A stretch of DNA of 63,842 nt from an uncultured Gammaproteobacteria bacterium (GCA_964557125.1 CAZKYX010000001.1:1-63842), one strand, 5' to 3'. Positions 283 to 23,992 are shown, counted from the first letter of the stretch. Notes: generated by a model not told the origin, from the letters alone. Made by a program: numbers and translations.

Positions 283-933
283 TTACTGTGCGCAATGTGA
301 GCAGGTGGAACCGGAATAATTTCGATAGACATATGCTGTACCCTGCGAATTGCAGTATTTATCGTAGCATGACGTGCTGCTCGTGCAGTAGGTGCCACCG
401 ATAAAGGTCTCTGGAGTGCAAAGTTGTGATGGTGTTGGTGAAGGTACTGCGTATCCATTGCAGTGTGAGCAATTTGAACCCGAATAAAGTCTTCTATATG
501 TAGATGTTCCACTCGAGTTGCAATATTCGTCATAACAGCTAATTCTACTGATGCAGTATGTCCCACCCACAAATTCTCCGGAGTTACATACTTTTCGGTC
601 GCGAATATTTGGTATTGCAGTGGGTGGATTTCCAACAGGAAGTCCACTTCTCGTTGGTATTGCAGTGGGTGGATTTCCGATAGGGGTATTGTTTTCCCTT
701 GGTATTACTGTTACTGCTACGTTTGGAAAAGAAGTTCTGCTATTACTGTAAGGCGAAGTGTCTCCCCAGTTAAAATAAGCATTTTGGCGAATATCTTGTT
801 CCTGTTGAGTTAATATTGTGGTTGCCCCAATGGCTATTGCAAAAAATCCCAGAAAAAAAATTAACTTGAAGTTATGAAATAAATTACGGGATTTTTTTTG
901 CACCAAATTTTTCTTTTTAAAACTTTGTGCCAT
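283..933 (-). CDS. exported Cys-rich repeat protein with N-terminal anchor and QQEQDIRQNA box
   Basis: 216-aa ORF. N-terminal hydrophobic segment, then two copies of a Cys module (C..F.GGTYC.S..SCYD.YCNS.GT...YSGS.CSHC) and a duplicated GNPPTAIP peptide. Confidence 0.7.
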   Translation of the reverse strand: MAQSFKKKNLVQKKSRNLFHNFKLIFFLGFFAIAIGATTILTQQEQDIRQNAYFNWGDTSPYSNSRTSFPNVAVTVIPRENNTPIGNPPTAIPTRSGLPVGNPPTAIPNIRDRKVCNSGEFVGGTYCISRISCYDEYCNSSGTSTYRRLYSGSNCSHCNGYAVPSPTPSQLCTPETFIGGTYCTSSTSCYDKYCNSQGTAYVYRNYSGSTCSHCAQ

Positions 934-1220: not shown

Positions 1221-2063
1221 TTACCTGATTGAAATTGCAACACTCCCAAACCTGAAGTCTCCAACAATTGTCGTGGTTTTTCCACTTTCCACTGTAAATT
1301 GAGTTGTCTTTGGAGTATTTTTATATCTAGTAAAGAACGAATTATATTTAAATGAAACATAATATTTTCCGGGATTTATTGACTGACTAAGTTTTCCGTT
1401 TGATGTTTGTGCGACGACTGTTCCTGAATCAGTAAGGATTTTTATTGTTTGAGGTTCTGGTGTTGTCGAAGCATTTACAAGCCCCTGTTTTACTGGAGTT
1501 GGGGTAGCAACAGACGTTGGGGTAGCAACAGACGTTGGGGTAGCTATTGCTGTTGGGGCAGTTGTAGGAACGTAGGTCGGATATATGATTTTAGTTGGGG
1601 CTGGGGTATATGGCACATTCGTTGGGAATGTAGAACATGAAGAATGACCTGCGCACGCATCTTGTGCTAATTTAGCCAAGGTTGCAGTAGAGCTACATGA
1701 CGTGCTGCTTCCAAGCGTTGAGCCATAACCATCCTGACAGGTATAGACAACGTTTCTAAATGAGCTGTCTCCGCAATACGTATTAAATTGAACTGCGCTT
1801 AGTCCTGTTTTGCATGAAGGAGGAGAGGATGGCATCACTGTTGCTGAAGGTGTTCCAATAGTTGGTTCTGGAGGAGTTACGGGAAATCCAGATGCACGTT
1901 GCCTTGTGTCTTGAATTTGCTGTGTAAGAAAGATAGTGACGGGAAGCGCAAGCGCAATAAGTCCAAAGAAAAAAATGCGTTTGTTTCGCAAACGTGAAGG
2001 AATTTTAGCAAGTATTGCTGTTTTGATTCTATTAAATAAATTCATTGATAAAACAATTCTCAT
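1221..2063 (-). CDS. exported protein: N-terminal anchor, QQIQDTRQRAS box, Cys-rich domain, PT linker, C-terminal beta-sandwich-like domain
   Basis: 280-aa ORF. Hydrophobic segment followed by TQQIQDTRQRAS; tandem ATPTSV repeats. Start could be the internal Met at 2045. Confidence 0.7.
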   Translation of the reverse strand: MRIVLSMNLFNRIKTAILAKIPSRLRNKRIFFFGLIALALPVTIFLTQQIQDTRQRASGFPVTPPEPTIGTPSATVMPSSPPSCKTGLSAVQFNTYCGDSSFRNVVYTCQDGYGSTLGSSTSCSSTATLAKLAQDACAGHSSCSTFPTNVPYTPAPTKIIYPTYVPTTAPTAIATPTSVATPTSVATPTPVKQGLVNASTTPEPQTIKILTDSGTVVAQTSNGKLSQSINPGKYYVSFKYNSFFTRYKNTPKTTQFTVESGKTTTIVGDFRFGSVAISIR

Positions 2064-3283: not shown

Positions 3284-5566
3284 CTATTTTGACCAAGTAA
3301 ATTTTGCAACAGCCTGTCCTTTATTTTCGTAATACTGAACAATAATTGTATGTACGCCTTGTGACATGTATTTCGTGAAGGTTCTTGTAGAAGCTCCCTG
3401 ATCTTTCCAACTATTGTAAACGGCCGTCCCATCTATATACACTCTCATCCCGTCGTCGTTACTTACGGTAAATCTATAGTAGCCCGATGTAAAAGACTGA
3501 TTTTTAGTCCACCTGACAGAAAACGCGTTGGAATTAATTTTTGGATCCGGTGAGTTTGCTCCCCAGTTAAAATTAATCGTACTGTCATCTCTTATGAGTG
3601 CTGGAACACCAATTAAGCTCGAATTATTATAGTATTCGCCTTTAAAGCCAAGAATTTGAACACTGGTTGGTGTAGGGGTTAGCGTTGGAATAAAAGTAGG
3701 AGTAGGGGTAGGAGAGGGTGAGCGAGTTGGAGTGGCTGTAGGAATTGGCGATGGGGTCATCGTAGCCGAAGGTGTGTTGAGGGGAATAGAGGTTGGAATA
3801 GGTGTTGAAGTGGGTAATAACGTTGGAGTTGGCGATTGCGTTGATGCTGTTGGCGTAAGAGTTGGCAGCGAATGCATGGAAGCCATAACTGCGTCAAAAG
3901 ATGATTTCTTAGTGCCGTCAGTACGTAGTATGCCAAAGGTTCCTTCACAGAGACCACTTGAAGTTGATTCATCCATGATTTCGTAGAGAATTATTAGTTT
4001 AGCTGTTGAGAGCTTGAGACTATTTACAGATTTTGTTACATAATTCTCCTGATCTGCTTCTGTGTATGTGCCTGGAAGTGTGCAAGTTCCTGTTTCTGCA
4101 ACTGCAACATCCTTTGAATAGCGTGTTTTTAAGTCGTCAACACGTGAACCTAACTTAGCAATTTCTATTAAATCTGGAGTTGGATACATATCAACTGACA
4201 ATATGTCCAGATTATCTTTTAGACTATCAAAGAACTGGTACCATTTCTGGACAGTAGCATCATTCATTGGGTAACCGCTGACGTTTGCAGTAATAAGAGC
4301 ATTTGAGTCATTTGTTTTAATAACGTTTTTAGCTATAGCTATCAGACTATTCAGATCTGACAAATATGCAGGTGAAGTTGTAGTAAGAGCTGAGTAATCT
4401 CTGAAGTGATGGGTATCGGCCTCATTAAATATTTGCCATATTTCCACTTTTCCCGTGTATCTTTTGGAAAGGTAATCATAGAACTGGTTAACAACACTTT
4501 TATAATCATCAATCGTATAATTTTTAGCGAATGCTGGTGTATTGGTAACTAGAAATACTTTTAACCCTTTGCTCCGAGCATAGTCTATCGCTGTGTCATA
4601 TATGGCAAGATTTGTATTATTCCACAGTATTGCATCTGATGAGATCCCCTGAACGCTCTGAACAGTTGATGTTCCTGCTGTAAGATCTGCTATGACAGTG
4701 GTTGTTTTATTTTCAGAAATAGATATTTGTGTTGCGGTTGGTATTTTTGGAGTTTGTCCATTCACCGAAATAAATGGGTACACATACGTGAGTGTGTAAT
4801 TTCCAGCTGGTAATGGTGTCCAGTCAACGCTCCATGTTTTTTGAAGTACTGTTTGCCCTGCTGTATCTGCGACGGTTATTGTTGCTTCAGCCGCTGGAAT
4901 TGTTTGTACTCTCAAGAGTCCCGATAATGGATTTGGCGTGATGGTTTCTGTGCCCTTTGTAAGATCGCTAACCACTACAGTAGTCTGATTTGAATATACT
5001 GTGATGTTTTGTGGTTGTGGTATTGCTACAGGTAGACCATTAATTGTATTGTGAGGATAGGTATACTGAATTGTATATTTTCCAACCGGCAGACTAATCC
5101 AGTCAACGCTCCATGATTTTTGATGTACAACTTGCCCTGAAGGGTTTTTGACAATTATTGTCGCTTCAGCTGCTGGATTTGTTTGTACTCTTAGAAGTCC
5201 AGGATTTGCTGAGGGTGTTGGAGTTGGTGTGGCTGTTGGAATTGTATTTGGAGCTTCAGCTGCTACCTCAAAATCAATAATATTAAAACGAATCCATTTT
5301 TGACCGTTTGCAGCTAGAGTGTCAACGTTAGATTTGAATGTATTGATATCAAGGTTGTTATTTGCTGCAGAAACATGCGTATTAAAGCCGAATTCTGTTC
5401 CGACGGTTCCTGATGCACGTTGTCGAAGATCCTGTCTTTGAGTGACTAAGAAGAAGGTTACCCCAATCCCTACAGCCATTAAGGCTAGAAATAAGTATGA
5501 TTTTGAATTTTTTAAATTCGTTCGAATTTTTTGATAAAGACTAGTTTCGAGAATAACTCTTACCAT
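3284..5566 (-). CDS. exported clan GH-A (GH5-like) glycoside hydrolase with two PEGA-like Ig repeats and a C-terminal PA14 domain
   Basis: IWQIFNEAD (acid/base NE) and VAVAETG (nucleophile E) motifs. Two ~95-aa LLRVQT.PAAEATI repeats. C-terminal GFKGEYYNN...YRF...DDGMRVYIDG fits PA14. TM plus [11 protein letters not shown] box. The ORF extends to GTG 5602; ATG 5566 preferred. Confidence 0.75.
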   Translation of the reverse strand: MVRVILETSLYQKIRTNLKNSKSYLFLALMAVGIGVTFFLVTQRQDLRQRASGTVGTEFGFNTHVSAANNNLDINTFKSNVDTLAANGQKWIRFNIIDFEVAAEAPNTIPTATPTPTPSANPGLLRVQTNPAAEATIIVKNPSGQVVHQKSWSVDWISLPVGKYTIQYTYPHNTINGLPVAIPQPQNITVYSNQTTVVVSDLTKGTETITPNPLSGLLRVQTIPAAEATITVADTAGQTVLQKTWSVDWTPLPAGNYTLTYVYPFISVNGQTPKIPTATQISISENKTTTVIADLTAGTSTVQSVQGISSDAILWNNTNLAIYDTAIDYARSKGLKVFLVTNTPAFAKNYTIDDYKSVVNQFYDYLSKRYTGKVEIWQIFNEADTHHFRDYSALTTTSPAYLSDLNSLIAIAKNVIKTNDSNALITANVSGYPMNDATVQKWYQFFDSLKDNLDILSVDMYPTPDLIEIAKLGSRVDDLKTRYSKDVAVAETGTCTLPGTYTEADQENYVTKSVNSLKLSTAKLIILYEIMDESTSSGLCEGTFGILRTDGTKKSSFDAVMASMHSLPTLTPTASTQSPTPTLLPTSTPIPTSIPLNTPSATMTPSPIPTATPTRSPSPTPTPTFIPTLTPTPTSVQILGFKGEYYNNSSLIGVPALIRDDSTINFNWGANSPDPKINSNAFSVRWTKNQSFTSGYYRFTVSNDDGMRVYIDGTAVYNSWKDQGASTRTFTKYMSQGVHTIIVQYYENKGQAVAKFTWSK

Positions 5567-5682
5567 GATTGATAATTTCAACGTAACACAGTAAAAGTGC
5601 ACGTGTCAATTGCTATTTGCCTCAAGATTCAATTTTTAGTAAAATAACAGTCTAGTTTAAGTTTTTACTCATGTGAAAGCAT

Positions 5683-8780: not shown

Positions 8781-9854
8781 TTATAGTGCCAGTAATAGTA
8801 TTCCTCCAATTATTGCAAGGAGAATTCCACCAAAGATTCCCAGTGTTTGTGCCATAGAACCGCTTGGTGCAAGTGTAGCAGTAGGCGTGTTTGTTGAAAT
8901 TGGTGTCATTGCTGTGGTTGGTGTAGCGCTCTCAGAAGCAACTGCCGTAACCGTCGGGGTGAGCGTAGCAGTTGCAGTGGGGGTAAGCGTTGCCGTTGGG
9001 ATAAGAGTGGCTGTGGGGGTTAGTGTCGGTGTAGCTGTTGGAATTGCTGTAGGAGTTGGTGATGGTGTAGGTGTTTTTGTAGGAGTTGGTGTTGGCGTTC
9101 TTGTTGGAGTAGGGGTTGGTGTGTGAGTTGGGGGAGGTGTTACAGTTGGGGTGGCGGTGGCAGCTGTTGTGACTGATGGTGTTGTTGATATGGTGGGTGT
9201 TGCCGTTGGAGCTGTTGTTACTGTGGTTGTGGGGGTAGCAGTTGGAATCTCTGTTACTGATGGGGTTGGTGTCATTGTAACTTCTGTATCTGGCGAATCA
9301 CCAAAGTCTGCTGTCCAAAACCAACTCGTGCCACTACCTTTGACCCGAGAAATACCAACGACAGCTCGAGATGATCTTTCCATTTCTTCTTTGTGTCCAA
9401 GCTTTGATGCAAGCCACGCATCAAATGCACTCTGACCAGTTCCTCCAACAACATAAGCAATGTTTTCACCTGCTGCACCAGAATATCCAAACGCTGGAAG
9501 TCTTGATTGGAGTCCGCGCCCAAGTGAATCGGTGTGGTCGAATCTGTCGTTTGTATTCATATCCTCAGACATCCACGTTGCTGCTTTAGTAAGCTTCAAG
9601 GATACCTTAAGTTTTTGCTTGCCGAGACTTTCTCTATGAGTATTTAAAATTTCCAAAAAATTCCATTCTTCTTCATCAAGCGTAATTTCCGGAGTTGGAG
9701 TAGCTGTTGGGGCAATTGTGGTCGGTGTAGCTGTAGGTGTTGGCTCACTGGCCCTTTGACGTAAATCTTGTTGTTGACGCACTAAATACACCAGAATAGG
9801 AAGCGAGATGAGAACGAGTGCAATAACAGTGTAAATAAGATATTTTTTCTTCAC
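8781..9854 (-). CDS. CAP/SCP (cysteine-rich secretory protein family) domain protein with very long PT linker and C-terminal hydrophobic tail
   Basis: 357 aa. TM plus [11 protein letters not shown] box. CAP-like core (LNTHR...[12 protein letters not shown]...AWLASKLGH). ~150 aa of TPT repeats. Ends [30 protein letters not shown]. Confidence 0.8.
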
Positions 9855-10357: not shown

Positions 10358-10716
10358 AAGAAGAACGAGAAGAATTTAGAAAAGACGAAAGCGGCTATAA
10401 CGAATCGCAGTCTGATTTGCAGGCAGAAATTGGTGCTGGTGAGTGGCAGCGTCTCATTGAATTTCCTGCGTACCAGAATCGTTCACGGCAGGGGAGAATT
10501 ATTGCTATGTATCAAGCAGTTTCTAATCGTCTTACGCAGCTTGTTTCACTTTACTATCAATATGTTAGAAACAACCCTCGCGAAGCAACAAAGATGCTTG
10601 CAGAGCTTAAAAAACTGCGAAAACTTCAGGAATTTTTATTGAATAGTCTTACGTGGGAACAAAAAGGAGAAATGGGCCAACACGAATTGCCTGATGAATT
10701 AAAAAATATCCTCTAG
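10354..10716 (+). CDS. hypothetical helical protein (120 aa)
   Basis: ORF 10312..10716; start chosen at ATG 10354, which overlaps the upstream stop. Confidence 0.5.
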   Translation: MKEEREEFRKDESGYNESQSDLQAEIGAGEWQRLIEFPAYQNRSRQGRIIAMYQAVSNRLTQLVSLYYQYVRNNPREATKMLAELKKLRKLQEFLLNSLTWEQKGEMGQHELPDELKNIL

Positions 10717-11129
10717 CGAATACTATTCGGAATAATTTTTGAAGTAGGTGAGGCGCCGCCCAGAGGGTTCTGCTCGACGGGTGACAGAGATACGCTTGGG
10801 GATGCAGTTGGTGTATTGGTTGGTGAGAGGAATGGAGTTGGGGAAGGTATAACTTGGGTGGGGAATCTTTTGATTTCAGAGGCTCTTTGCCTATTATCCT
10901 GACTTTGATTGAGTTGTGAAATGGTGATTGGTAATACGAGCAGTGCCAAGGCTATAGCTCCAAATGGCAGTAATTTTCCTCCATTAAATTTAAATCCGCC
11001 TCCGCCTTTTTCTTCATTTTGAGACTGTTTTGGAGACTGCCCACCCGGTATTGGATTTTGAATAGTATTATTAAAGCCAATTCGTGGTGCGAGAGGTCCG
11101 TCAAAAGGAGAATTTGATTTTGGTTCCAT
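10713..11129 (-). CDS. small membrane protein with QSQDNRQRAS box and PT tail
   Basis: 138 aa. Gly-rich N-terminus, one TM, the box, then a PT-rich tail. The C-terminal PVEQNPLGGA is encoded by a REP copy. Confidence 0.55.
   Translation of the reverse strand: MEPKSNSPFDGPLAPRIGFNNTIQNPIPGGQSPKQSQNEEKGGGGFKFNGGKLLPFGAIALALLVLPITISQLNQSQDNRQRASEIKRFPTQVIPSPTPFLSPTNTPTASPSVSLSPVEQNPLGGASPTSKIIPNSIR
10752..10781 (+). repeat. GC-rich REP element (diverged copy) inside a CDS
   Basis: GGCGCCGCCCAGAGGGTTCTGCTCGACGGG. Same family as 16706, 30366 and 36315. Confidence 0.75.
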
Positions 11130-11171: not shown

Positions 11172-11837
11172 TTATTGTGTAGGGGTACTGGAAGTAAAAG
11201 GAACAGCAGTTGGAGCGAAGGTTTTTGAGAGCTTTATAGTAAGTGGTACTGTTTCTTTAAGAATGGACTCTTGGGTTGAAAGAGTTGTTGCAACGGATTT
11301 AGGAAGAAATGTCATCTCAGTTGTTGCCTGAACCGTAGAAGGAGCGACATTAAATGTAAGGGTGGCAATTTTACCAACCCCCGAGACTTCGGCATCTGAG
11401 AGTGAAATTCCCATCGCGTATGATATTCGCCCTTGGGCAATATCAACGGATTTTATGAGTACTTGTGATGAATTTGGGAATAGTGGAGTATTTGTTTCAC
11501 CGACAATTCCGGTTCGTGCAGGAGTTATGGTTACATTTGTTATGAGTTTTGGGTCATATGAAAGTTCTGCTTGGATTGTCGAAACAGGTTTTCCACTTGT
11601 ATCTACCATGATATCAACACTTACAAGGTTTGAAGTTGCAGACGCCATATCAAGCGTTACTGGGGAGAAGTAGATTTTGGTGGAAGGCGCAACTGTTGGG
11701 GCTACGGTTACAGTTGGTTCTCCGAGATTTTTGAGATTTAACTGACTATTTCTGCTAGATAAAGCTAAGAATACAAGCAGAGCAGTAACGACTGCAAGAA
11801 CAATGATAAGAACTGTTGTTTTTTTAGGTAAATTCAT
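11172..11837 (-). CDS. membrane-anchored cohesin-like domain protein
   Basis: 221 aa. N-terminal TM. VSVDIMVDTSGKPVSTIQAELSYDPKLI ... GVGKIATLTFNV fits the cohesin sequence pattern. Confidence 0.7.
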   Translation of the reverse strand: MNLPKKTTVLIIVLAVVTALLVFLALSSRNSQLNLKNLGEPTVTVAPTVAPSTKIYFSPVTLDMASATSNLVSVDIMVDTSGKPVSTIQAELSYDPKLITNVTITPARTGIVGETNTPLFPNSSQVLIKSVDIAQGRISYAMGISLSDAEVSGVGKIATLTFNVAPSTVQATTEMTFLPKSVATTLSTQESILKETVPLTIKLSKTFAPTAVPFTSSTPTQ

Positions 11838-11943
11838 ATTTCTTAGAATTAAGTATATAGAATAAAGAATAAAGTATTCAATACATATAAAATAAAATTC
11901 TTTTCATAATACTTAATACTTTATTCATATTTCATTATTCTAA

Positions 11944-13356
11944 TTAGTCTCCTTCAACACTTAAGAATGCATTGACGATAATTGCGTTATCAATAATATC
12001 AAATTCCCCATTATCATTGAAGTCTGCAAGAACTTTCTGTTCTGCTGTGCATGATTCTTTCCCTTGATAGCAGGCAACAAAGAGGTTGTAGTCAAGCGTA
12101 TCCATTCTGTTATTGCGATTAAGATCCCCGAGTATAAGAGTTCCTGTATTGATAACAACAGTTGGAGCACCAGCTTCTAAATAGACAATTCCAGGAACTT
12201 GCTTCCATAGTGAATTGTCAAACCTGATTTTTACAAGCACGTTTCCTGTAGCGTTAATTGGAACACTTATCACACGATTGTAAGCAAATAATTCACTGCT
12301 GTATGTTGCGTTTCCACTCACTGTATATACAGGCTGGTCACTTCCCTGTTTGAATATTGCTATATCAGTTGCAAATCTGCTTGGATGCTTTGGATCCGGA
12401 TTATTGTTGTTATTTGATGTTTTTTCTCCAATGCCCGGTAGTTTGGTGACTAGAGATATCGAGGCCTGTCCTGGAATAGGTGTAGGTGTTGCCGTTGGTG
12501 TTTTTGTTGGAGTTGGGCTAGAGAAGACCGTTGGGGTAGGCGTATTGCTTGGGGTCGGACTTATATAAGCCGTTGGTGTAGGCGTATTTGAAGGAGATGG
12601 TGTTGGGGTAATGGTTGGAATTACAGTTGGGGTAATACTTGGGAAAATTGTAGGTGTCGTGCCAAGTGTTACACAGTAACCGGCATCATTTCCTGTAACA
12701 ACTTGTCTACAAGTTTGGGAGGCGCATTCTGCATCTCTATAGCATTGACATCCATTCACCATATTTACTCCACTTCTACAATCAGGTGTCGGTGTCAACT
12801 GACCGTCAATTGTTATGTTCGTTTCAATAGTAGATGTATTAGCAATAGGTACATATTCCTTATATCCCGTTGCGGTGAATAGAACGTGCAATGTAACTTT
12901 TCCTATTCCTTGTTTTTTTGCTATCAAAATGAGCTTTCCAAGACTAACGGTATCTCCTGTTACTGGAGTTATTGTTGTGTTAGTGCCGATAAATGTGACG
13001 CTGCCAATCTTATTCACGCCCGGAGAAGCGATAGGGAGAAGAGTAGCTTGAGAGAAATCTACATATTCAAACAAGCCATCTGAAATTGCTTTGCTAAAGT
13101 CAATAGTTCCAGATACTGCTCCCAAATCATTACTCCCTGCTTTTACTTTGATATTCACGGCTATTTGATCTCCAACTTTCACAACAGAGGAAGAGGGTTC
13201 AAGCGTTACTGTAACAGGAGGTGCGCTACTTGCACGCGAGCGAGACTCTTGGCTCCTTTGAACTTGATACAGGGTTACGGCGATGGCACCAAGTAGAACA
13301 AAAGCCCCAATTATGAGGAAAATAAGTCGTTTGCCTTGAGTTAAATTTTGCAACAT
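11944..13356 (-). CDS. cohesin-domain plus dockerin-domain protein
   Basis: 470 aa. TM plus QRSQESRSRAS box. Cohesin-like VKVGDQIAVNIKVKAGSNDLGAVSGTIDF. Cys knot, PT linker. C-terminal dockerin pair GDLNRNNRMDTLDYNLF and ADFNDNGEFDIIDNAIIVNAF. Confidence 0.8.
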   Translation of the reverse strand: MLQNLTQGKRLIFLIIGAFVLLGAIAVTLYQVQRSQESRSRASSAPPVTVTLEPSSSVVKVGDQIAVNIKVKAGSNDLGAVSGTIDFSKAISDGLFEYVDFSQATLLPIASPGVNKIGSVTFIGTNTTITPVTGDTVSLGKLILIAKKQGIGKVTLHVLFTATGYKEYVPIANTSTIETNITIDGQLTPTPDCRSGVNMVNGCQCYRDAECASQTCRQVVTGNDAGYCVTLGTTPTIFPSITPTVIPTITPTPSPSNTPTPTAYISPTPSNTPTPTVFSSPTPTKTPTATPTPIPGQASISLVTKLPGIGEKTSNNNNNPDPKHPSRFATDIAIFKQGSDQPVYTVSGNATYSSELFAYNRVISVPINATGNVLVKIRFDNSLWKQVPGIVYLEAGAPTVVINTGTLILGDLNRNNRMDTLDYNLFVACYQGKESCTAEQKVLADFNDNGEFDIIDNAIIVNAFLSVEGD

Positions 13357-13357
13357 A

Positions 13358-14350
13358 TTATCTTAATTTTGCTAAAAACATATCCTTCCATCCTTGAAAG
13401 TCGCGAAGATCAATGAGACTATCTGGGTGATAACAGTCTGATTTAAGTCCACCTGAGCCAAGCATTTCACCTACCCATATGCCATAGTCCAAAAGGTCTC
13501 CGGTTATTCCATCGAGATTTGGATCGCAGACTGCTGGGGTAGGTGTTGCGGTTGCAAGAATTGGGGTCGGAGTATTCTGCGGTGTTGCAGTTGGTGTACT
13601 GGAAGGAGTAGGGAGGGGGCAAATTTTATGTGAGGAGCAGACATTTTGAAGATTAAATTGCCAAGTTCTTTCAGATTCGCATCTAAAACTCGCTGTTTTT
13701 GTAACAACAAAGCCGTCGTTACAAGTTACGGTAGCTGCTTTTGCATCATAACTTGGAACGCAGCCTGTTTTGTCATATTTTATAGATTTAATTCCGCTAG
13801 ACGAGCAGGTCGTGCCATTTGTATCTGTTGTATTTGGGAGAGGAGTAGGAGTTGCAGCGGAAGTCGGTGTAGGACCGTTTGTTGTTGGAGTTGGTAGGTT
13901 AATAACATTGCATGTCTTAGGGGTTTGTATACCTAAAGTTCCGCAAATTTGAATATTTGGGGTTTTGATACATGTGCCTCCTTGTGTCGTTGCAATTGTG
14001 CCTGTCGGACAAGTACAGCCAAGAATGGTTGATTCTGGAAGACCAGAGCAGCATACAATTTGCTGAGCAGAATCAGGGCTTTGCCCTTGATATGCACACT
14101 CGGCTCTGTATGGATGAGTCCCTGTGCAGTAGGGTTGTGTTGTGCCAATGGGACCTGGACCAAGACAATAACCCGTCTGCTGACCCATGGTGCTCGAGCT
14201 TACTGGTTGCTGCACGCAACATCTTGTGTCACCTCCGCAAGCCCCAGTTGTTGTACAGGTCTGTGCCTGAGCTGAAACATAACTGGTTTTGGTTAGGAAA
14301 ATCGAAAAGAGTAGTGCGAATACAAAAAATATTTTTTTCAATAAAGACAT
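13358..14350 (-). CDS. secreted Cys-rich protein with C-terminal dockerin-like repeats
   Basis: 330 aa. Cleavable signal peptide (SYVSAQAQ), more than 30 Cys. C-terminal DPNLDGITGDLLDYGIW and HPDSLIDLRDFQGW. Stop lies 1 nt from the next start. Confidence 0.75.
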   Translation of the reverse strand: MSLLKKIFFVFALLFSIFLTKTSYVSAQAQTCTTTGACGGDTRCCVQQPVSSSTMGQQTGYCLGPGPIGTTQPYCTGTHPYRAECAYQGQSPDSAQQIVCCSGLPESTILGCTCPTGTIATTQGGTCIKTPNIQICGTLGIQTPKTCNVINLPTPTTNGPTPTSAATPTPLPNTTDTNGTTCSSSGIKSIKYDKTGCVPSYDAKAATVTCNDGFVVTKTASFRCESERTWQFNLQNVCSSHKICPLPTPSSTPTATPQNTPTPILATATPTPAVCDPNLDGITGDLLDYGIWVGEMLGSGGLKSDCYHPDSLIDLRDFQGWKDMFLAKLR

Positions 14351-14406
14351 AGCACCTATAAAAACAGCGTACTATTATAGTAAGAAAGTTTGAGAAAAGA
14401 GTCAAG

Positions 14407-18806: not shown

Positions 18807-19130
18807 TCAAATAGGACTTCTTGTCGGAGTGGGGGTAGGGGCAACTTCTCCTGATTCCTCAAGTTTTAAATCAGTAATTTGAAGATTTTTTTCATTTGAT
18901 GTATTTGTCGTATTGTTGGGAGCCGCGTAATGAATTTTGCTATCAACAATATCTGACTTTGGAGGAGAGAATATGCCAGACCACACAAGAACACTAAGCA
19001 TAAGTACTACAACAAAAATAACTTCAATCATGGAGAAGCCTTTTTCATTCCGCAGAGCGGAATGAAAAGAATTAAGTATTAAGAAGTAAGTATTATGGTG
19101 AAGTTTTGAATTCTGTTTTAATTTTTTCAC
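18807..19130 (-). CDS. type IV prepilin-like protein (class III signal, G|FSMIE)
   Basis: 107 aa. KGFSMIEVIFVVVLMLSVLV has Gly-1, Phe+1 and Glu+5. GTG start, with an unusually long 31-aa leader. Confidence 0.6.
   Translation of the reverse strand: MKKLKQNSKLHHNTYFLILNSFHSALRNEKGFSMIEVIFVVVLMLSVLVWSGIFSPPKSDIVDSKIHYAAPNNTTNTSNEKNLQITDLKLEESGEVAPTPTPTRSPI
19042..19068. repeat. perfect 12-bp palindrome with a 3-nt loop, inside the prepilin leader-coding region
   Basis: TTTTCATTCCGC-AGA-GCGGAATGAAAA read directly. Confidence 0.85.
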
Positions 19131-19173
19131 TAATTAATTGTAGGTAGGGAGGGTTAAAAAAGTCAAATGTTTG

Positions 19174-19833
19174 TTAGGGTGAAAGTTTTACGTCAAGGGT
19201 TGCTTGGGAGAGTTTTAATTTTGTTTGTATTCCATCCTTAAGAGTATATACATTTGAATTTTGAAGGTCGTACAAAAGCTGTGTAGTCACCGAAGTGTTG
19301 AATGAAACAGGGGTGAAGGTAAGTTGTGCTATTCTTCCTTTACCCTTTATTGGTTTTGCGCCATCTGGCAATTTAAAAGTTATCGTTACATTAGATGGAT
19401 TGTACATAATGCTTAAAAATTCTGTCTCAATAGGGAGAAGTCCCGTGTCTCCTGTAACGGGTGACACTCTAATGTTTTTAACCTGATTCAAGTCGTATTT
19501 AAGAATAATAGTACCTCCAGAAATGCCTTCGTTTTCAAGTGTTTGGATATTGAGGTCAACGGTCACAGGTTGATTTTCCTTTGTAACCAAATTCAGTACT
19601 GAGAATCCAAGCGAAACTTTTACGTGTTGCGGATTATCAATATTATCAACCAAAGGGGCAATTTTGGTTTTTATGGAGGTCTTGCCTTTAAATCCAAACG
19701 TTAAAAGAAGAAAGGCTATAAGAATTGCAGCGACAACAAGACTAATAGCTATAAGGAGTTTTTTATTAAGTCCCTTTTTTTCAGGAACTTGTGGAGCTTC
19801 TTGTTCTGGTTGTTGGGGCAGATTGTTTTCCAT
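19174..19833 (-). CDS. membrane-anchored cohesin-like domain protein
   Basis: 219 aa. N-terminal TM. VTVDLNIQTLENEGISGGTIILKYDLNQV ... GKGRIAQLTFTPV follows the cohesin pattern. Confidence 0.65.
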   Translation of the reverse strand: MENNLPQQPEQEAPQVPEKKGLNKKLLIAISLVVAAILIAFLLLTFGFKGKTSIKTKIAPLVDNIDNPQHVKVSLGFSVLNLVTKENQPVTVDLNIQTLENEGISGGTIILKYDLNQVKNIRVSPVTGDTGLLPIETEFLSIMYNPSNVTITFKLPDGAKPIKGKGRIAQLTFTPVSFNTSVTTQLLYDLQNSNVYTLKDGIQTKLKLSQATLDVKLSP

Positions 19834-19836
19834 ATG

Positions 19837-21105
19837 TTATATTGACTGGCAGAATGCTTCGGTTGCGCCAGAAGGTTTTATACAGTATCCACCACACCCT
19901 GAGCATTGGTTATTTGTACCAGTTACTGTATTTTTTGAGGTATCGCAAAGTCTTCCTGAAACTTGGCAAGAAGAACCAGCTCCACTTTGATTGGCAATTG
20001 GCAATTGGCAACACGTGTAGCCGGTTTTGTCTTTCCCTCCGCTATAAAAAAGAGAGCAAGATTCTGAAGCTAGCGCATCGGGATTTTTGACAGCTCCCCC
20101 TGAGCAAGTTGTTCCAGAAGAGCAAATTTGACTCACAGTACCACTGGAAGTTTGTATAGAGTCATTGCATGTGCCACTTGTTGCAATTGGTGTTGGGGAA
20201 GTTATCGGTGCGGGAGTTCCTGTTGTAACCGGTGCAATGCATGTATTTGCGCTTATGCTCCAAACAAATCCATTTCGGCAGCACACTCCAGTAGCACATG
20301 ACGCTGAAAGTGAGCTACAAGACTGTGCACAGTAATTTCCGCTAACACACTGCCACGGTCCTTGAGAAGGTACACAAGCCTTACCTTCTCCGATTGGAGT
20401 GTATGGAGTGGGAGTTGGAGTTTTGGTGGGGGTGGGTGAGCCACTTACAACAGCTGTTGGACATTTATAAAAATATGGCTGAAGACCCCCTGATGCGCCT
20501 ACACAGTATGAATTCTTAAAATCTGAGGCAGTACTTTTTACCCACTCAGCAGAGGCTTTTGAGCATGGAGGAGTCGTGCCAGCTGGGACAGGAAGCATTT
20601 TGGAGGTATCAGGACCATCATCACCGCAGTACCCAATCTCACCTGTAGCAGGTGTCGGGGATGCACCTGATGCTCCCGGTGATGGGGTCGTTGTTGTTAC
20701 TGGCCCAACAACTGGATTCAGAATTTCAATTGTTTGATTGTATGTATAGCTTGTGTCTGATGCTCCCGGTTCTATAATATCTGACTGGTGTGTATGGACT
20801 ATGGATCCGTTTTCACTCACCATAATTTTTATCCAGAACGAGGTAGGCTTTGTATTTAGTTCGACAGAAGCCCCGTTAGCAAAATTGGAAGAAAGAGGTG
20901 TATTCGTTGCCGCGTCCATAATGGTTACTATTACAGAGGGGTATGTTTTTGCAACACCACTTGAGGTGGTTTTTGCCTTAACGGTAATAGTATAGGCACC
21001 TTGTGCGAAAGCTTGAAAATTTTGTGAAATGAGCAGAGCAATGACAGTGAAAGAGAGAATGAGAATAAGGGACAAGGAGCGAACTAATTTCATGGTAGTA
21101 ATCAT
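19837..21105 (-). CDS. secreted Cys-rich protein
   Basis: 422 aa. Signal peptide (QAFAQG), N-terminal beta-rich region, PT linkers, several Cys modules including GYCGDD...YFYKC. Stop is 3 nt from the next start. Confidence 0.7.
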   Translation of the reverse strand: MITTMKLVRSLSLILILSFTVIALLISQNFQAFAQGAYTITVKAKTTSSGVAKTYPSVIVTIMDAATNTPLSSNFANGASVELNTKPTSFWIKIMVSENGSIVHTHQSDIIEPGASDTSYTYNQTIEILNPVVGPVTTTTPSPGASGASPTPATGEIGYCGDDGPDTSKMLPVPAGTTPPCSKASAEWVKSTASDFKNSYCVGASGGLQPYFYKCPTAVVSGSPTPTKTPTPTPYTPIGEGKACVPSQGPWQCVSGNYCAQSCSSLSASCATGVCCRNGFVWSISANTCIAPVTTGTPAPITSPTPIATSGTCNDSIQTSSGTVSQICSSGTTCSGGAVKNPDALASESCSLFYSGGKDKTGYTCCQLPIANQSGAGSSCQVSGRLCDTSKNTVTGTNNQCSGCGGYCIKPSGATEAFCQSI

Positions 21106-21150
21106 ACTATAAATAGTAGATGAGCTTCTGTCAATTTTAATGCAATGACA

Positions 21151-21780
21151 TTAATAATATATGGTGAGTGGTTGCGAGGTGAGCTTAACTGATTTTCCAT
21201 TTCTTGTCACAAAATATGATTTTTCTGAAATGGATATTGTTGGATAATTTTTGGGAGTGAGATTTTTTATTGAAAAGGTTAGTGCGCCAATACTTGCTTT
21301 TCCTGTTTTTTCACCAATGTCATCAGGAAGAACCAGCGATATAGTAGTTATCCCCTTTGTGTTGTCCACATTCATCTGTGCGATTTTTACATAGTTCCCA
21401 AAGAATGAGAAGTTGGAATTGTTAAGATTGAAATTATTTACTTCAACAAATTGTGGGTCATACTCAAAATTGATGAATGTTCCTGCAAGCGGGGTGTTGC
21501 TTTCAATAATAACATCAACTGTTTTTTGACCTGATGGGGCATTGAGTGAAAATGCATCTGCAAGAAAAGAAATTTTGCCACTTCCAGTTTGTGTTGAGGA
21601 AGCTTGCTCCTGTGTCTCCTTAACATTTTTAGGTTTAGGACCAACGCTAAAAATAATAGCAGTCAGGATAACGAGGAGAAGAATAGCACCTATTGTAGCG
21701 TAAAATATTTTACTCCTCTTTAGTTTTTCAAAAGCAGTTAGGTCTGTTGATTGACTTATGATTTGTTGATTTTCTTCCAT
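21151..21780 (-). CDS. membrane-anchored cohesin-like domain protein
   Basis: 209 aa. N-terminal TM. VDVIIESNTPLAGTFINFEYDPQFV ... GKASIGALTFSIKN. Confidence 0.65.
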   Translation of the reverse strand: MEENQQIISQSTDLTAFEKLKRSKIFYATIGAILLLVILTAIIFSVGPKPKNVKETQEQASSTQTGSGKISFLADAFSLNAPSGQKTVDVIIESNTPLAGTFINFEYDPQFVEVNNFNLNNSNFSFFGNYVKIAQMNVDNTKGITTISLVLPDDIGEKTGKASIGALTFSIKNLTPKNYPTISISEKSYFVTRNGKSVKLTSQPLTIYY

Positions 21781-21786
21781 ATATCG

Positions 21787-23406
21787 TTAAGGGTTGGCCC
21801 AGCAATAATCAGACCCTGTACAAGGGTGAAGTTGTCCCCAGCTTACTTTCCCAGGATGTGTGTTAGGATATGATGAATCTCCACAGACCCCGCCTTGCTC
21901 CGCGCAATTTTTTGGACCTACCCAGCAATATGATGATTGGCAAGGAGCGAGTGGTCCCCAGCTTTTAGCGTTTGGATGAGTATCTGGGTAACTTGTGTCG
22001 CCACAGACTCCATTGTGATTTGCGCAGGTATCTGCCACTGTTGGAGTAGGTGTTGCGGGTACAGGTGTGGCGGTTGGACCGGAGCCCGTACACATACAGC
22101 CGGTAGTTGAATTGGCGTTACTCTTGCAAGTAGTCAAAGCACCCGCACAGCCTCCATATGTTGTTGATGGACACTCGTATCCTGTTTTTATGGCACTTGG
22201 ATTTGGAGTTGCGCACCCAAATCCAGGAGTCACAGGAGTTGGAGAGATGGTTGTAGATGGTGAGGGGGTTGTGGTGGGAGTTGCAGTTGGGGTAGTGCAT
22301 TTATAGAAATAGTTGGATTGACTATCATTTACTCCATAGTTATCAACGCACCACTTATCATACGTACTGTCACTGCTTGTGTTGTTAATTCCACACGTTG
22401 CACTATTAATAGTAACGGGGTTGCTGGTTCTTGATGCATTTGCACAGTATCCAGGGGAGAGGGGTGTTCCTGTACCTGCACACTCATAATAGTTGTCAGT
22501 TGGACTACCAAATGTAGCATTGCAGTAGTCATCATATGTACCATTGTAGAATGCTGAATTTATACTACAGGTGCTCGAAAGGACAGGTTTTGCATTTCCC
22601 CTCAAGTCATCCGCACACCACCCCGGTTTGGTGGGTGGAAGGGGAGTGGGGGTAGGTGTGGCTGTAGCACTGCTTGGTTTTGGTGTTATTGTGCTTGTAG
22701 CGGGTGTGGGACTGCCCTTTGGATCGCTTACGGTATCCTTAACACAGCAGATTGGAGTTTTGGTTTTGAATGTATCGGCAGCATCAACATAATGTGTGTC
22801 GGTGGGACAAGTCAAACTGCTTAAATATTTTACACCGTGAAGATCATGACATGTATTATATCCAGATAAGGTGAAATTAAAGTCTCCTACTACGGTATTT
22901 GATGATATTTCGATATAGCAAGTAGTATTTTTCTTGCATGTAGTTGAAACGTAATCGTAGTCCAGATACTGTCCCTGTCTTATTGGCCAAACCACTAGCT
23001 TATATTCACCATTACTCAAAACACGGTCATATGTATTGATGTTCGTATTATTTGGTGGTAATAGCTCCGAATATATAGGGGCGTTACTCGTTTTTGTGTA
23101 GATATTTACTTGCACGCCATCGTACCTAATTCCTCCTGTATTAACTGTGATAGTACCCTTCAGCCTTCCAGAGCCTGTATTTGTAAGGCATGTTACGCAG
23201 CTCGATGATGAATAGGCACAGATTTCTCCAGCTTTGTTACAAGAGGTGACTATACTACCATTATTCAGAATTGCATCTCTTTCTTTATTGCATTCATAAT
23301 TCAATGCACCAGAATCACAATACTGAGTAATTGCATAGGAATTTGAAACGAGTGCTGAAGTAAAAAATAATATGGTAGAGATGAGGATTCCCAGTAATAA
23401 TTTCAT
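21787..23406 (-). CDS. secreted Cys-rich protein
   Basis: ORF extends to 23634, but Met77 (23406) begins a clean signal peptide, MKLLLGILISTILFFTSALVSNSYA, 10 nt after the upstream stop. Two GxC..DD...Y(F/Y)Y(K/E)C modules and a duplicated C-terminal GVCGD(T/S)SYP.THP...SWG.L.PC...YCW module. Confidence 0.7.
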   Translation of the reverse strand: MKLLLGILISTILFFTSALVSNSYAITQYCDSGALNYECNKERDAILNNGSIVTSCNKAGEICAYSSSSCVTCLTNTGSGRLKGTITVNTGGIRYDGVQVNIYTKTSNAPIYSELLPPNNTNINTYDRVLSNGEYKLVVWPIRQGQYLDYDYVSTTCKKNTTCYIEISSNTVVGDFNFTLSGYNTCHDLHGVKYLSSLTCPTDTHYVDAADTFKTKTPICCVKDTVSDPKGSPTPATSTITPKPSSATATPTPTPLPPTKPGWCADDLRGNAKPVLSSTCSINSAFYNGTYDDYCNATFGSPTDNYYECAGTGTPLSPGYCANASRTSNPVTINSATCGINNTSSDSTYDKWCVDNYGVNDSQSNYFYKCTTPTATPTTTPSPSTTISPTPVTPGFGCATPNPSAIKTGYECPSTTYGGCAGALTTCKSNANSTTGCMCTGSGPTATPVPATPTPTVADTCANHNGVCGDTSYPDTHPNAKSWGPLAPCQSSYCWVGPKNCAEQGGVCGDSSYPNTHPGKVSWGQLHPCTGSDYCWANP

Positions 23407-23416
23407 ATTTATAAAT

Positions 23417-23992
23417 TTAACATCCGGTTGCGTCGCCGCCTTTTGTCGTTTCAAGCTTCCCTCCTGTAAATATACCACTTGCGTCCTTAGTTCCGCCAGA
23501 GTAAAGAAGGAGTTGCCATTTTTTTGTATTAAATCCAGAATAGTTGCGAAGGGTAAGATCGTATGTGCTTGACGTGGCGACAAAAGGCTTTGATGTACCA
23601 ACATTGGTGAACGTACCCGGAGTTGATGATTCAACCTGAATCTGTATATAACCGGCTACTGATCCGGTTGCTGTAATTGTTCCTTTTTTTACCCGCGTTG
23701 TATCCTCCGGCTCGCAAGCTCCAAGCGTATAGGTTAGTTCCCATTTTGCGGCAGGAGCAACGCCAGTAGTTGGTGCTACACCACCAACGGGCGTTGGGGT
23801 AAGTGTCCGGTAGGTAGCTTTTGTCCCTTCAAGACTGAAAGAACCTGTGACAATAAGTACGCTAAATATAAATACAACGATAATCACCCACGTTACCATG
23901 GAGAAGCCCAGCTCGCCTTGATTAGGTTGCGGGTTGCGGGTTTTAGGTTTTAGGTTAGGAAAGAATTTCGGAGTTATTTTTTGTTTTTTCAT
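23417..23992 (-). CDS. type IV prepilin-like protein (G|FSMV)
   Basis: 191 aa. GELGFSMVTWVIIVVFIFSVLIV, but Thr rather than Glu at +5. The leader region is encoded by a heptad array. Confidence 0.55.
   Translation of the reverse strand: MKKQKITPKFFPNLKPKTRNPQPNQGELGFSMVTWVIIVVFIFSVLIVTGSFSLEGTKATYRTLTPTPVGGVAPTTGVAPAAKWELTYTLGACEPEDTTRVKKGTITATGSVAGYIQIQVESSTPGTFTNVGTSKPFVATSSTYDLTLRNYSGFNTKKWQLLLYSGGTKDASGIFTGGKLETTKGGDATGC

Follow-up and report, generated by a model that had tools for sequence, protein, structure and literature searches.

A putative non-cellulosomal cohesin-dockerin surface-display cassette in a bacterium of the candidate phyla radiation

Described cohesin-dockerin systems and the three-gene locus

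Cohesins and dockerins have reportedly been known outside cellulosomes since the work of Peer, Smith, Bayer, Lamed, and Borovok in 2009. Non-cellulosomal examples, such as the NagJ cohesin of Clostridium perfringens and its toxin/glycosidase dockerins (PDB: 2jh2, 2o4e, 2ozn), are single modules on non-cellulolytic proteins. Hierarchical cellulosomes (CipA X-DocII and SdbA-OlpB CohII of C. thermocellum; the adaptor scaffoldins of Acetivibrio cellulolyticus and Ruminococcus flavefaciens) follow a logic of cargo, adaptor, and anchor. In the candidate phyla radiation (CPR, Patescibacteria), the dockerin-domain protein SEML1_0315 of the Saccharibacterium Southlakia epibionticum is an essential envelope protein for which a role in host contact was proposed (Wang et al. 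2023, Cell 186:4803, PMC10633639). Here, we describe three adjacent genes, which we refer to as C, B, and A, in a stretch of 63,842 nucleotides deposited as DNA of an uncultured Gammaproteobacteria bacterium (GCA_964557125.1, CAZKYX010000001.1:1-63842; the whole stretch is hereafter the window, of 64 kb). C encodes a secreted Cys-rich protein with a divergent C-terminal dockerin, B a membrane-tethered protein with both a cohesin and a dockerin, and A a membrane-anchored single-cohesin protein.

We favour, with a probability of roughly 55%, the reading that these genes form a non-cellulosomal, lineage-specific cohesin-dockerin surface-display cassette of a Microgenomates-type CPR bacterium. The cassette is probably a plug-and-socket system that fastens non-enzymatic Cys-rich proteins to the cell surface. 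Like the NagJ-type modules, those encoded here sit singly on non-cellulolytic proteins; in contrast to them, they belong to a conserved cassette of three genes that has two connector classes and N-terminal membrane-helix anchors, the cargo consists of Cys-rich modules, and the lineage is CPR. The locus shares with hierarchical cellulosomes the logic of cargo, adaptor, and anchor, an adaptor bearing both a cohesin and a dockerin, and two connector classes that do not cross-match, and in its fold the B cohesin corresponds to type I cohesins (6kgf, 3ul4, 4dh2, 5nrm). Unlike those systems, it has one cohesin per protein, so that enzymes would not be clustered, its adaptor has a membrane helix of its own, and there is no carbohydrate-active enzyme (CAZyme) as cargo, no carbohydrate-binding module (CBM), no S-layer homology (SLH) module, and no sortase signal. 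B also recalls the X-Doc dyad in position and co-inheritance: a beta-sandwich stands directly N-terminal to its dockerin and is inherited with it in about 40 homologues, and the whole-chain Foldseek ranking of B is dominated by the cohesin domain. The likeness to type I/type II cellulosomes and to X-Doc dyads is one of wiring logic only. SEML1_0315 is, as here, a dockerin-bearing envelope protein of Patescibacteria, likened by description; it belongs to a different CPR class, and no cohesin partner or cassette is described for it (PMC10633639).

The three open reading frames (ORFs) are co-directional and together span 11172..14350 on the minus strand, on which all features reported below also lie. 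Gene C (13358..14350) encodes 330 amino acids (aa), gene B (11944..13356) 470 aa, and gene A (11172..11837) 221 aa. A single nucleotide separates the stop codon of C (TAA) from the start codon of B (ATG), and an AT-rich spacer of 106 bp lies between B and A. A candidate promoter was found upstream of C at 14405..14377 by a promoter/terminator scan that was otherwise uninformative. The first-pass annotation, made from the sequence alone, had described three adjacent minus-strand genes here, and they are present as described, with all of the peptide strings quoted for them. When C, B, and A were compared by BLASTP with every ORF of the window, no paralogues of the C cargo domains were found. In total, the window encodes four cohesins, one per protein (A, B, and two paralogues of A at 19174..19833 and 21151..21780), and two dockerins, carried only by B and C according to dockerin hidden Markov models (HMMs).

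The host appears, from a neighbouring serine hydroxymethyltransferase (SHMT) gene, to be a Microgenomates-type CPR bacterium whose nearest named relative is Candidatus Curtissbacteria. The closest named sequences to this gene are from Candidatus Curtissbacteria (68%), "Patescibacteria group" metagenome-assembled genomes (MAGs), and Roizmanbacteria, and the gene served as the anchor for finding related loci. MAG records titled "uncultured Gammaproteobacteria bacterium" (L003, L004, L010, L017, and others) have SHMT sequences 61-78% identical to that of the window, and several of them show the same CPR-type arrangement of cohesin and dockerin genes; the TPA (third-party annotation) assemblies concerned seem to be unreliable in their organism names.

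Cohesin and dockerin modules of the three proteins

Protein A has one hydrophobic segment, a predicted transmembrane helix at aa 8-26 (11760..11816; Kyte-Doolittle 19-residue mean 3.14), followed by a cohesin at aa 72-201 in the Pfam alignment (11235..11624). The Pfam Cohesin (PF00963) score of 24.2 bits is above the curated threshold of 24.1 but borderline, and the A-family HMM scores the protein at 226 bits. The search returned 55 relatives, nearly all of about 190-245 aa and of the same layout, and 35 of them have a precomputed PF00963 match; a direct phmmer search of A found no relative among PDB sequences. From its sequence, A is thus a membrane-anchored single cohesin, the role that it had been given in the first-pass annotation. 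That annotation had overlooked two further A-family membrane cohesins in the window, of 219 aa (19174..19833; Pfam Cohesin 24.5 bits, A-family HMM E = 2.9e-12) and 209 aa (21151..21780; A-family HMM E = 2.9e-15, no Pfam Cohesin match). These belong to a second cluster (18807..23634), the synteny of which is kept in contigs L001 and L002 and in which they alternate with genes for Cys-rich secreted proteins of 615 aa (21787..23634) and 422 aa (19837..21105), both without a dockerin. The cluster ends in a small ORF (18807..19130) with the prepilin-type motif KGFSMIEV.

At its N-terminus, protein B has a hydrophobic helix (aa 7-33) and, directly after it, the motif QVQRSQESRSRASS (together 13225..13338; Kyte-Doolittle 19-residue mean 2.89), and AlphaFold models residues 7-40 as a helix. 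This N-terminal membrane helix had been overlooked before. The domain that follows (aa 46-190, 12787..13221) gives no Pfam Cohesin match on B's own sequence. We assign it as a cohesin because its family profile matches solved cohesins, because most members of the family pass Pfam, and because the predicted fold matches cohesins. The profile (alignment A1, ten members) retrieves from PDB the NagJ cohesin 2jh2 (E = 4.9e-6; the best sequence match, and fifth by fold) and CipC 1g1k (E = 3.7e-4). Six of the ten members pass Pfam Cohesin individually, and the B-type orthologues in L003 and P0010 score 28.0 and 24.3 bits. In the AlphaFold model of B (30 sequences, mean predicted local distance difference test score, pLDDT, 79.5), residues 48-186 form a confident beta-sandwich (pLDDT about 90), and the best 14 Foldseek matches in PDB are all cohesins (template modelling score, TM, 0.68-0.75; root-mean-square deviation 2.5-3.6 Å). 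Downstream of the cohesin are a six-Cys mini-domain or Cys knot (aa 193-228, 12673..12780; Cys 193, 203, 205, 211, 216, and 228; low pLDDT), with a similar motif in P0013, P0008, and the L003/L004 proteins, and a Pro/Thr-rich linker (aa 233-295, 12472..12660) that was identified from sequence and is predicted to be disordered (pLDDT below 50).

The C-terminal part of B consists of an all-beta, "X-like" beta-sandwich (aa 297-406, 12139..12468; pLDDT around 90 or above) that, in the AlphaFold model, directly abuts a three-helix dockerin (aa 409-470, 11947..12132). Both calcium loops of this dockerin, DLNRNNRMDTLD at residue 411 and DFNDNGEFDIID at residue 445, are canonical 12-residue EF-hands with D/N at positions 1, 3, 5, 9, and 12, and each is followed by a helix (420-430 and 454-463), with a connecting helix at 438-444. 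The tail covers positions 1-56 of the 57-position Pfam Dockerin_1 model (PF00404) at 22.6 bits, where the cutoff is 22.9; the B orthologue in L003 is above the cutoff at 25.6 bits, and 12 B homologues have a precomputed PF00404 match. A phmmer search of B against PDB sequences found a weak dockerin stretch in 8zvk_A only. Two canonical loops are present in 25 of 38 B-type dockerins. Missing EF-hand ligands would have counted against the first-pass annotation by its own terms; in B both loops are intact. Of the modules that it had proposed for B, the N-terminal cohesin holds by family profile and fold, and the C-terminal dockerin pair by its loops. The B-type dockerins also have a nearly invariant Cys pair, C429/C436 in B, between the first helix and the second calcium loop, in the context (A/S)CY....(S/A)C(T); the pair presumably forms a disulfide that stabilises the domain outside the cell.

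BLAST mapping of the 52 B homologues found that about 40 share only residues 296-470 and have unrelated N-terminal domains; therefore, the beta-sandwich and dockerin behave as a mobile unit. The domains fused to this unit in homologues include subtilase, VWA, SdrD-like, phosphoesterase, peptidoglycan-binding, and FN3 domains (Pfam identifiers PF00082, PF00092, PF17210, PF04185, and PF01471), and L052 and L053 have a CAP domain fused to a B-type dockerin and a laminin-G protein with a dockerin, respectively. No cellulases were seen among the cargo domains on homologous B-type dockerins. The window also encodes a CAP/YkwD-family protein (8781..9854), which has the N-terminal motif described below, a very long Pro/Thr-rich region, a C-terminal hydrophobic segment, and no dockerin, whereas the CAP-domain protein of L052 (4798..6477) ends in a B-type dockerin. 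The CAP cargo would thus be membrane-anchored in the window and dockerin-attached in L052.

The motif after the N-terminal helix of B, Q(Q/R)QD(L/I/T)RQ(R/N)A(S), directly follows a hydrophobic helix in at least six surface-protein ORFs of the window (283..933, 1221..2063, 3284..5602, 8781..9854, 10713..11129, and 11944..13356). It can also be written Q-x-Q-x-x-R-x-R-A-S and is common to most B homologues from other contigs. The helix and motif look like a lineage-wide sorting, anchoring, or cleavage signal, and we know of no name for this arrangement. It differs from the ordinary AQA signal peptide of protein C.

Protein C has a signal peptide (aa 1-29, 14264..14350) with a hydrophobic window at residues 1-26 and an end at AQA, the cleavage site being placed by the A-x-A rule. 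The protein contains 22 cysteines and two Pro/Thr linkers. Fourteen of the cysteines are in an N-terminal Cys-rich region (aa 30-150, 13901..14263; pLDDT below 50), and a second Cys-containing domain (aa 176-246, 13613..13825), flanked on both sides by the Pro/Thr linkers, corresponds to a conserved block in the alignment of C with its seven homologues (A2) and is modelled as beta strands and one helix (pLDDT about 65-77). Searches of Pfam, NCBIfam, and PDB gave no direct match anywhere in the protein. In the public annotation, C appears as P0053, a protein of 276 aa with 100% identity over 84% of the ORF, which begins at an internal Met and thus lacks both the signal peptide and the first Cys-rich segment; the 330-aa ORF, with its clear signal peptide, looks like the one with the correct start. 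With its signal peptide, its cysteines, and a tail at residues 275-330, C fits the earlier description of a signal-peptide Cys-rich protein ending in dockerin-like repeats, and its cargo is, as had been said, a Cys-rich module and not a glycoside hydrolase.

The 56-residue C tail (aa 275-330, 13361..13528), CDPNLDGITGDLLDYGIW...HPDSLIDLRDFQGW, has two loop-helix repeats and an invariant Cys pair (C275/C306). C275, D276, P277, D288, W292, E295, C306, D317, and F318 are invariant among the seven homologues (columns C7, D8, P9, D20, W24, E27, C38, D49, and F50 of alignment A3). We conclude by transitive homology that the tail is a divergent member of the dockerin family, because its profile retrieves proteins that Pfam calls Dockerin_1. 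Searched against 1.84 billion representative proteins, the C-tail profile retrieved 660 at E <= 1e-3 and 83 at E <= 1e-10. Pfam called Dockerin_1 in 40 of the 94 hits scanned (each of at most 470 aa; best E = 3.7e-30) and no competing family, and the retrieved segments grade continuously from canonical (GDANGDGVVDILDYNIWRDEFLG..TTKKSDFNHDGIIDLLDFNIWRNA) to Cys-bearing (CDPNKDGKIDTLDFQWWKDELLG..TTKLSDCFHPDGAVNLLDFQVWKDI). This exhaustive library search and the independent Pfam scan replaced an iterative search linking C-type to B-type dockerins, into which two B-type sequences had entered at round 1. The profile also matches the duplicated tail of P0039 (VDILDFNVWRDEFL...IDILDFNIWRDEFL, E = 8e-13), a W-type tail is found in some relatives (see below), and the best PDB match of a combined C/W profile is the type I dockerin 5nrm_B (E = 0.0043), with both repeats aligned. 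Eight close homologues of the tail gave three sub-threshold Pfam matches (best E = 0.015), and an hhalign comparison of the C-type and B-type alignments was weak (59% probability over 23 columns) and is not relied on here.

The C-type tails share the pattern D-x-N-x-D-G-x-h-D-x-x-D-[FY]-x-x-W with the multi-copy dockerin repeats of PF00404, which the C-tail profile retrieves at E as low as 1e-29. They differ from these repeats in a Cys in place of Gly before loop 1 and a Cys at position 2 of loop 2, both invariant in the eight close homologues, and in a one-residue insertion in loop 2 (C-F/Y-H-P-D-G); C itself has a further insertion in loop 1. That loop reads D276-P-N-L-D-G-I-T-G-D-L-L-D288, with 13 residues, and loop 2 reads D305-C-Y-H-P-D-S-L-I-D-L-R-D317, where Cys-Tyr-His-Pro replaces the canonical x-N-x-D and no Asn/Asp is at position 3. 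Some C homologues have a canonical EF-hand as loop 1 (e.g., P0057, DPNHDGRLDISD). The C-tail profile also retrieved large proteins of up to 7,341 aa (P0117, P0122, P0152, P0157, P0161, and P0170) that carry a GDYNxDGxVDxADYxVWRDNLG module in five to seven tandem copies, whereas a classical dockerin is single and C-terminal. The dockerin assignment of C in the first-pass annotation therefore stands as family homology and not as an intact pair of calcium loops, since loop 1 has an insertion and loop 2 lacks the position-3 ligand; these loops, and the failure of the tail to be detected on its own sequence, had been overlooked. Taken over the three proteins, the cohesin (PF00963) and dockerin (PF00404) assignments stand up to comparison by profile, by fold, and by transitive homology.

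Connector classes, gene order, and competing readings

The HMMs separate the modules cleanly within the window. With the B-cohesin HMM, B reaches 181 bits and A only 23, B is absent from the matches of the A-family HMM, and the B-dockerin and C-tail HMMs each match only their own protein. Because of this separation, we recognise, from sequence profiles, two classes of cohesin and two of dockerin, mutually exclusive in each case, as an ordered wiring with two specificities would require; that the dockerin classes are as distinct as the cohesin classes suggests matched pairs.

At least six other contigs, diverged in sequence, keep the order C, B, A (L001-L004 and L050/L051). L001 and L002 encode a C-type dockerin protein (C homologues 52% and 42% identical), a protein with a cohesin and a dockerin, and an A-family cohesin. 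L003 and L004 have the same order, with a B orthologue above the Pfam cutoffs for both Cohesin and Dockerin_1 (28.0 and 25.6 bits). L052 has a C-type gene followed by a B-like gene at the contig end. In every contig examined that has a C- or W-type dockerin gene (the window, L001-L004, L050/L051, and L052), a B-class cohesin gene lies immediately downstream of it. In L010, L016, and L023, B-type dockerin genes directly adjoin A-family cohesin genes, with no C-type gene between them. In L003, the closest relative, the protein in the C position (11287..12495, 370 aa) has two dockerins, a canonical Dockerin_1 (44.9 bits, residues 220-274) and a W-type tail (TITIQDYNLWRDEFI...DVTISDYNIWRDNFI); its L004 orthologue has the W-type tail only.

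On the favoured surface-display reading, two connector pairs would have separate specificities. The C-type dockerin would plug into the B-class cohesin, as suggested by gene adjacency and, in the window, by the 1-nt spacing, and the B-type dockerin with its preceding beta-sandwich would plug into A-family cohesins, as suggested by adjacency in ten other contigs. C would thereby be held on the cell through B and A, with its Cys-rich modules as the functional cargo; this cargo is most likely an adhesin or another envelope or host-contact protein, not an enzyme. Since relatives fuse the B-type unit to varied non-cellulolytic domains, the A-family cohesins could be sockets of general use, receiving surface proteins of many non-cellulolytic kinds. 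B has its own tether to the membrane, and its docking onto A would therefore loop or cross-link surface proteins, and not build a free-standing scaffold, unless the N-terminus of B is cleaved. Of the anchor-scaffold-cargo wiring proposed in the first-pass annotation, the two cohesin and two dockerin classes and the conserved order are borne out, while B, with its own membrane helix, would be no free scaffold.

Several observations weigh against this reading. The pairings are drawn from gene adjacency in loci of common descent, which are thus not independent, and B, having a membrane helix of its own, does not need an anchor tier. There are four cohesins in the window for two dockerins, and, because two A-family paralogue genes adjoin genes for dockerin-less Cys-rich secreted proteins, A-family cohesins may also have partners without a dockerin. 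The Pfam scores are borderline for both A (24.2 vs. 24.1) and B (22.6 vs. 22.9). On its own sequence, the C tail has no Pfam Dockerin_1 match even at E <= 10, and neither of its non-canonical loops aligns as a canonical EF-hand with a complete ligand set; therefore, calcium-dependent cohesin binding by C is not assured. The AlphaFold model of C is also poor (mean pLDDT 48).

The alternative that survives best is a single-tier display, in which B- and C-type dockerins all plug into A-family membrane cohesins, the B cohesin serves unlinked dockerin proteins, and adjacency reflects co-regulation only. The three A-family paralogues of the window would be available as sockets, B is membrane-tethered on its own, and L010, L016, and L023 have a B-type dockerin beside an A-family cohesin without a C-type gene; against this, a B-class cohesin gene follows every C- or W-type dockerin gene examined, and the distinctness of the dockerin classes speaks for matched pairs. 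We consider a single tier unlikely. Similarly unlikely is an extended version of the two-specificity kit, in which the A and B families would self-assemble into chains or a lattice as the coat or host-attachment apparatus of CPR Microgenomates. The C-type would then be a new dockerin type in which the Cys pair replaces part of the calcium site, its binding would be redox-dependent or calcium-independent, and Cys-rich adhesins would be presented to the host.

In a daisy-chain or lattice arrangement, proteins with both a cohesin and a dockerin would polymerise head-to-tail or cross-link molecules or cells into a fibril or layer, with A nucleating it and C capping or decorating it. A cohesin and a dockerin on one polypeptide are common in the lineage (L014, L016, L017, L050, and four consecutive genes in L053), a cohesin is also present in three of the 95 proteins scanned in alignment A7, and P0039 combines a B-class cohesin with a C/W-class dockerin. 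Nevertheless, adjacency pairs the cohesin class of B with C-type partners and its dockerin class with A-type partners, and the N-terminal membrane helix limits free polymerisation, which makes such an arrangement rather improbable. The run in L053 (80..5780) consists of four genes that each encode a B-class cohesin and a dockerin (428, 332, 405, and 694 aa, six-frame length), and it would allow head-to-tail chains.

The modules might also be homologous to cohesins and dockerins without being partners, the cohesin-like domains serving as generic Ig-like stalks or binders of other ligands (Cys-rich proteins, glycans) and the dockerin-like tails as calcium- or disulfide-stabilised structural or glycan-binding modules. 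Peer et al. are said to have found in 2009 that most non-cellulosomal cohesins and dockerins have no demonstrated partner. The pairing of two A-family cohesin genes with genes for dockerin-less Cys-rich proteins, the non-canonical C loops, and the giant members of the C-type tail family, with four to seven tandem copies unlike classical dockerins, would all fit such a role. The repeated adjacency of dockerin and cohesin genes across diverged genomes, however, and the intact EF-hand ligands of the B-type dockerins make it improbable in our judgement.

A true cellulosome for plant-polysaccharide degradation is hardly credible and was rejected: the locus does have cohesin and dockerin modules, with a GH53/GH5-like + PA14 enzyme some 6 kb from them, but that enzyme has no dockerin, the window has no multi-cohesin scaffoldin, no dockerin-bearing CAZyme, no CBM, and no SLH or sortase anchoring, and the cargo on homologous dockerins consists of proteases, VWA, CAP, SdrD-like, and similar domains, not cellulases. 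The enzyme (3284..5602 with the longest start) has the N-terminal motif and, as the first-pass annotation had noted, no dockerin, whether by Pfam or by the dockerin HMMs. No glycoside hydrolase or other CAZyme with a dockerin is encoded within the window, and Pfam finds no CBM, SLH, or sortase-type anchoring module in A, B, and C or in the proteins encoded beside them; hydrophobic helices at the N-termini provide the anchors. The earlier term "cellulosome-like" can be kept for the connector logic only, given the single cohesins and the lack of a CBM, an SLH module, and a dockerin-bearing CAZyme.

Significance for CPR cell surfaces

CPR bacteria (Patescibacteria) are mostly uncultivated, have tiny genomes, and are thought to live attached to other cells, and their surface organisation and host contact are largely unknown. 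Some Patescibacteria proteins are already annotated in databases as containing a cohesin or a dockerin. In the literature on cohesins and dockerins in Patescibacteria, CPR, Microgenomates, and Saccharibacteria, we found no description of a conserved cassette, of membrane-helix-anchored single-cohesin sockets, or of a Cys-bearing dockerin subtype.

From the locus emerge two connector pairs, compact and probably orthogonal, and a divergent dockerin subtype that contains Cys, all of which could serve as protein-assembly parts if the predicted binding is true. The cassette would carry the cohesin-dockerin principle over into a minimal setting that is non-cellulolytic and in which membrane helices are the anchors, and it offers a concrete, testable model for how dockerin-bearing CPR proteins may be held on the cell.

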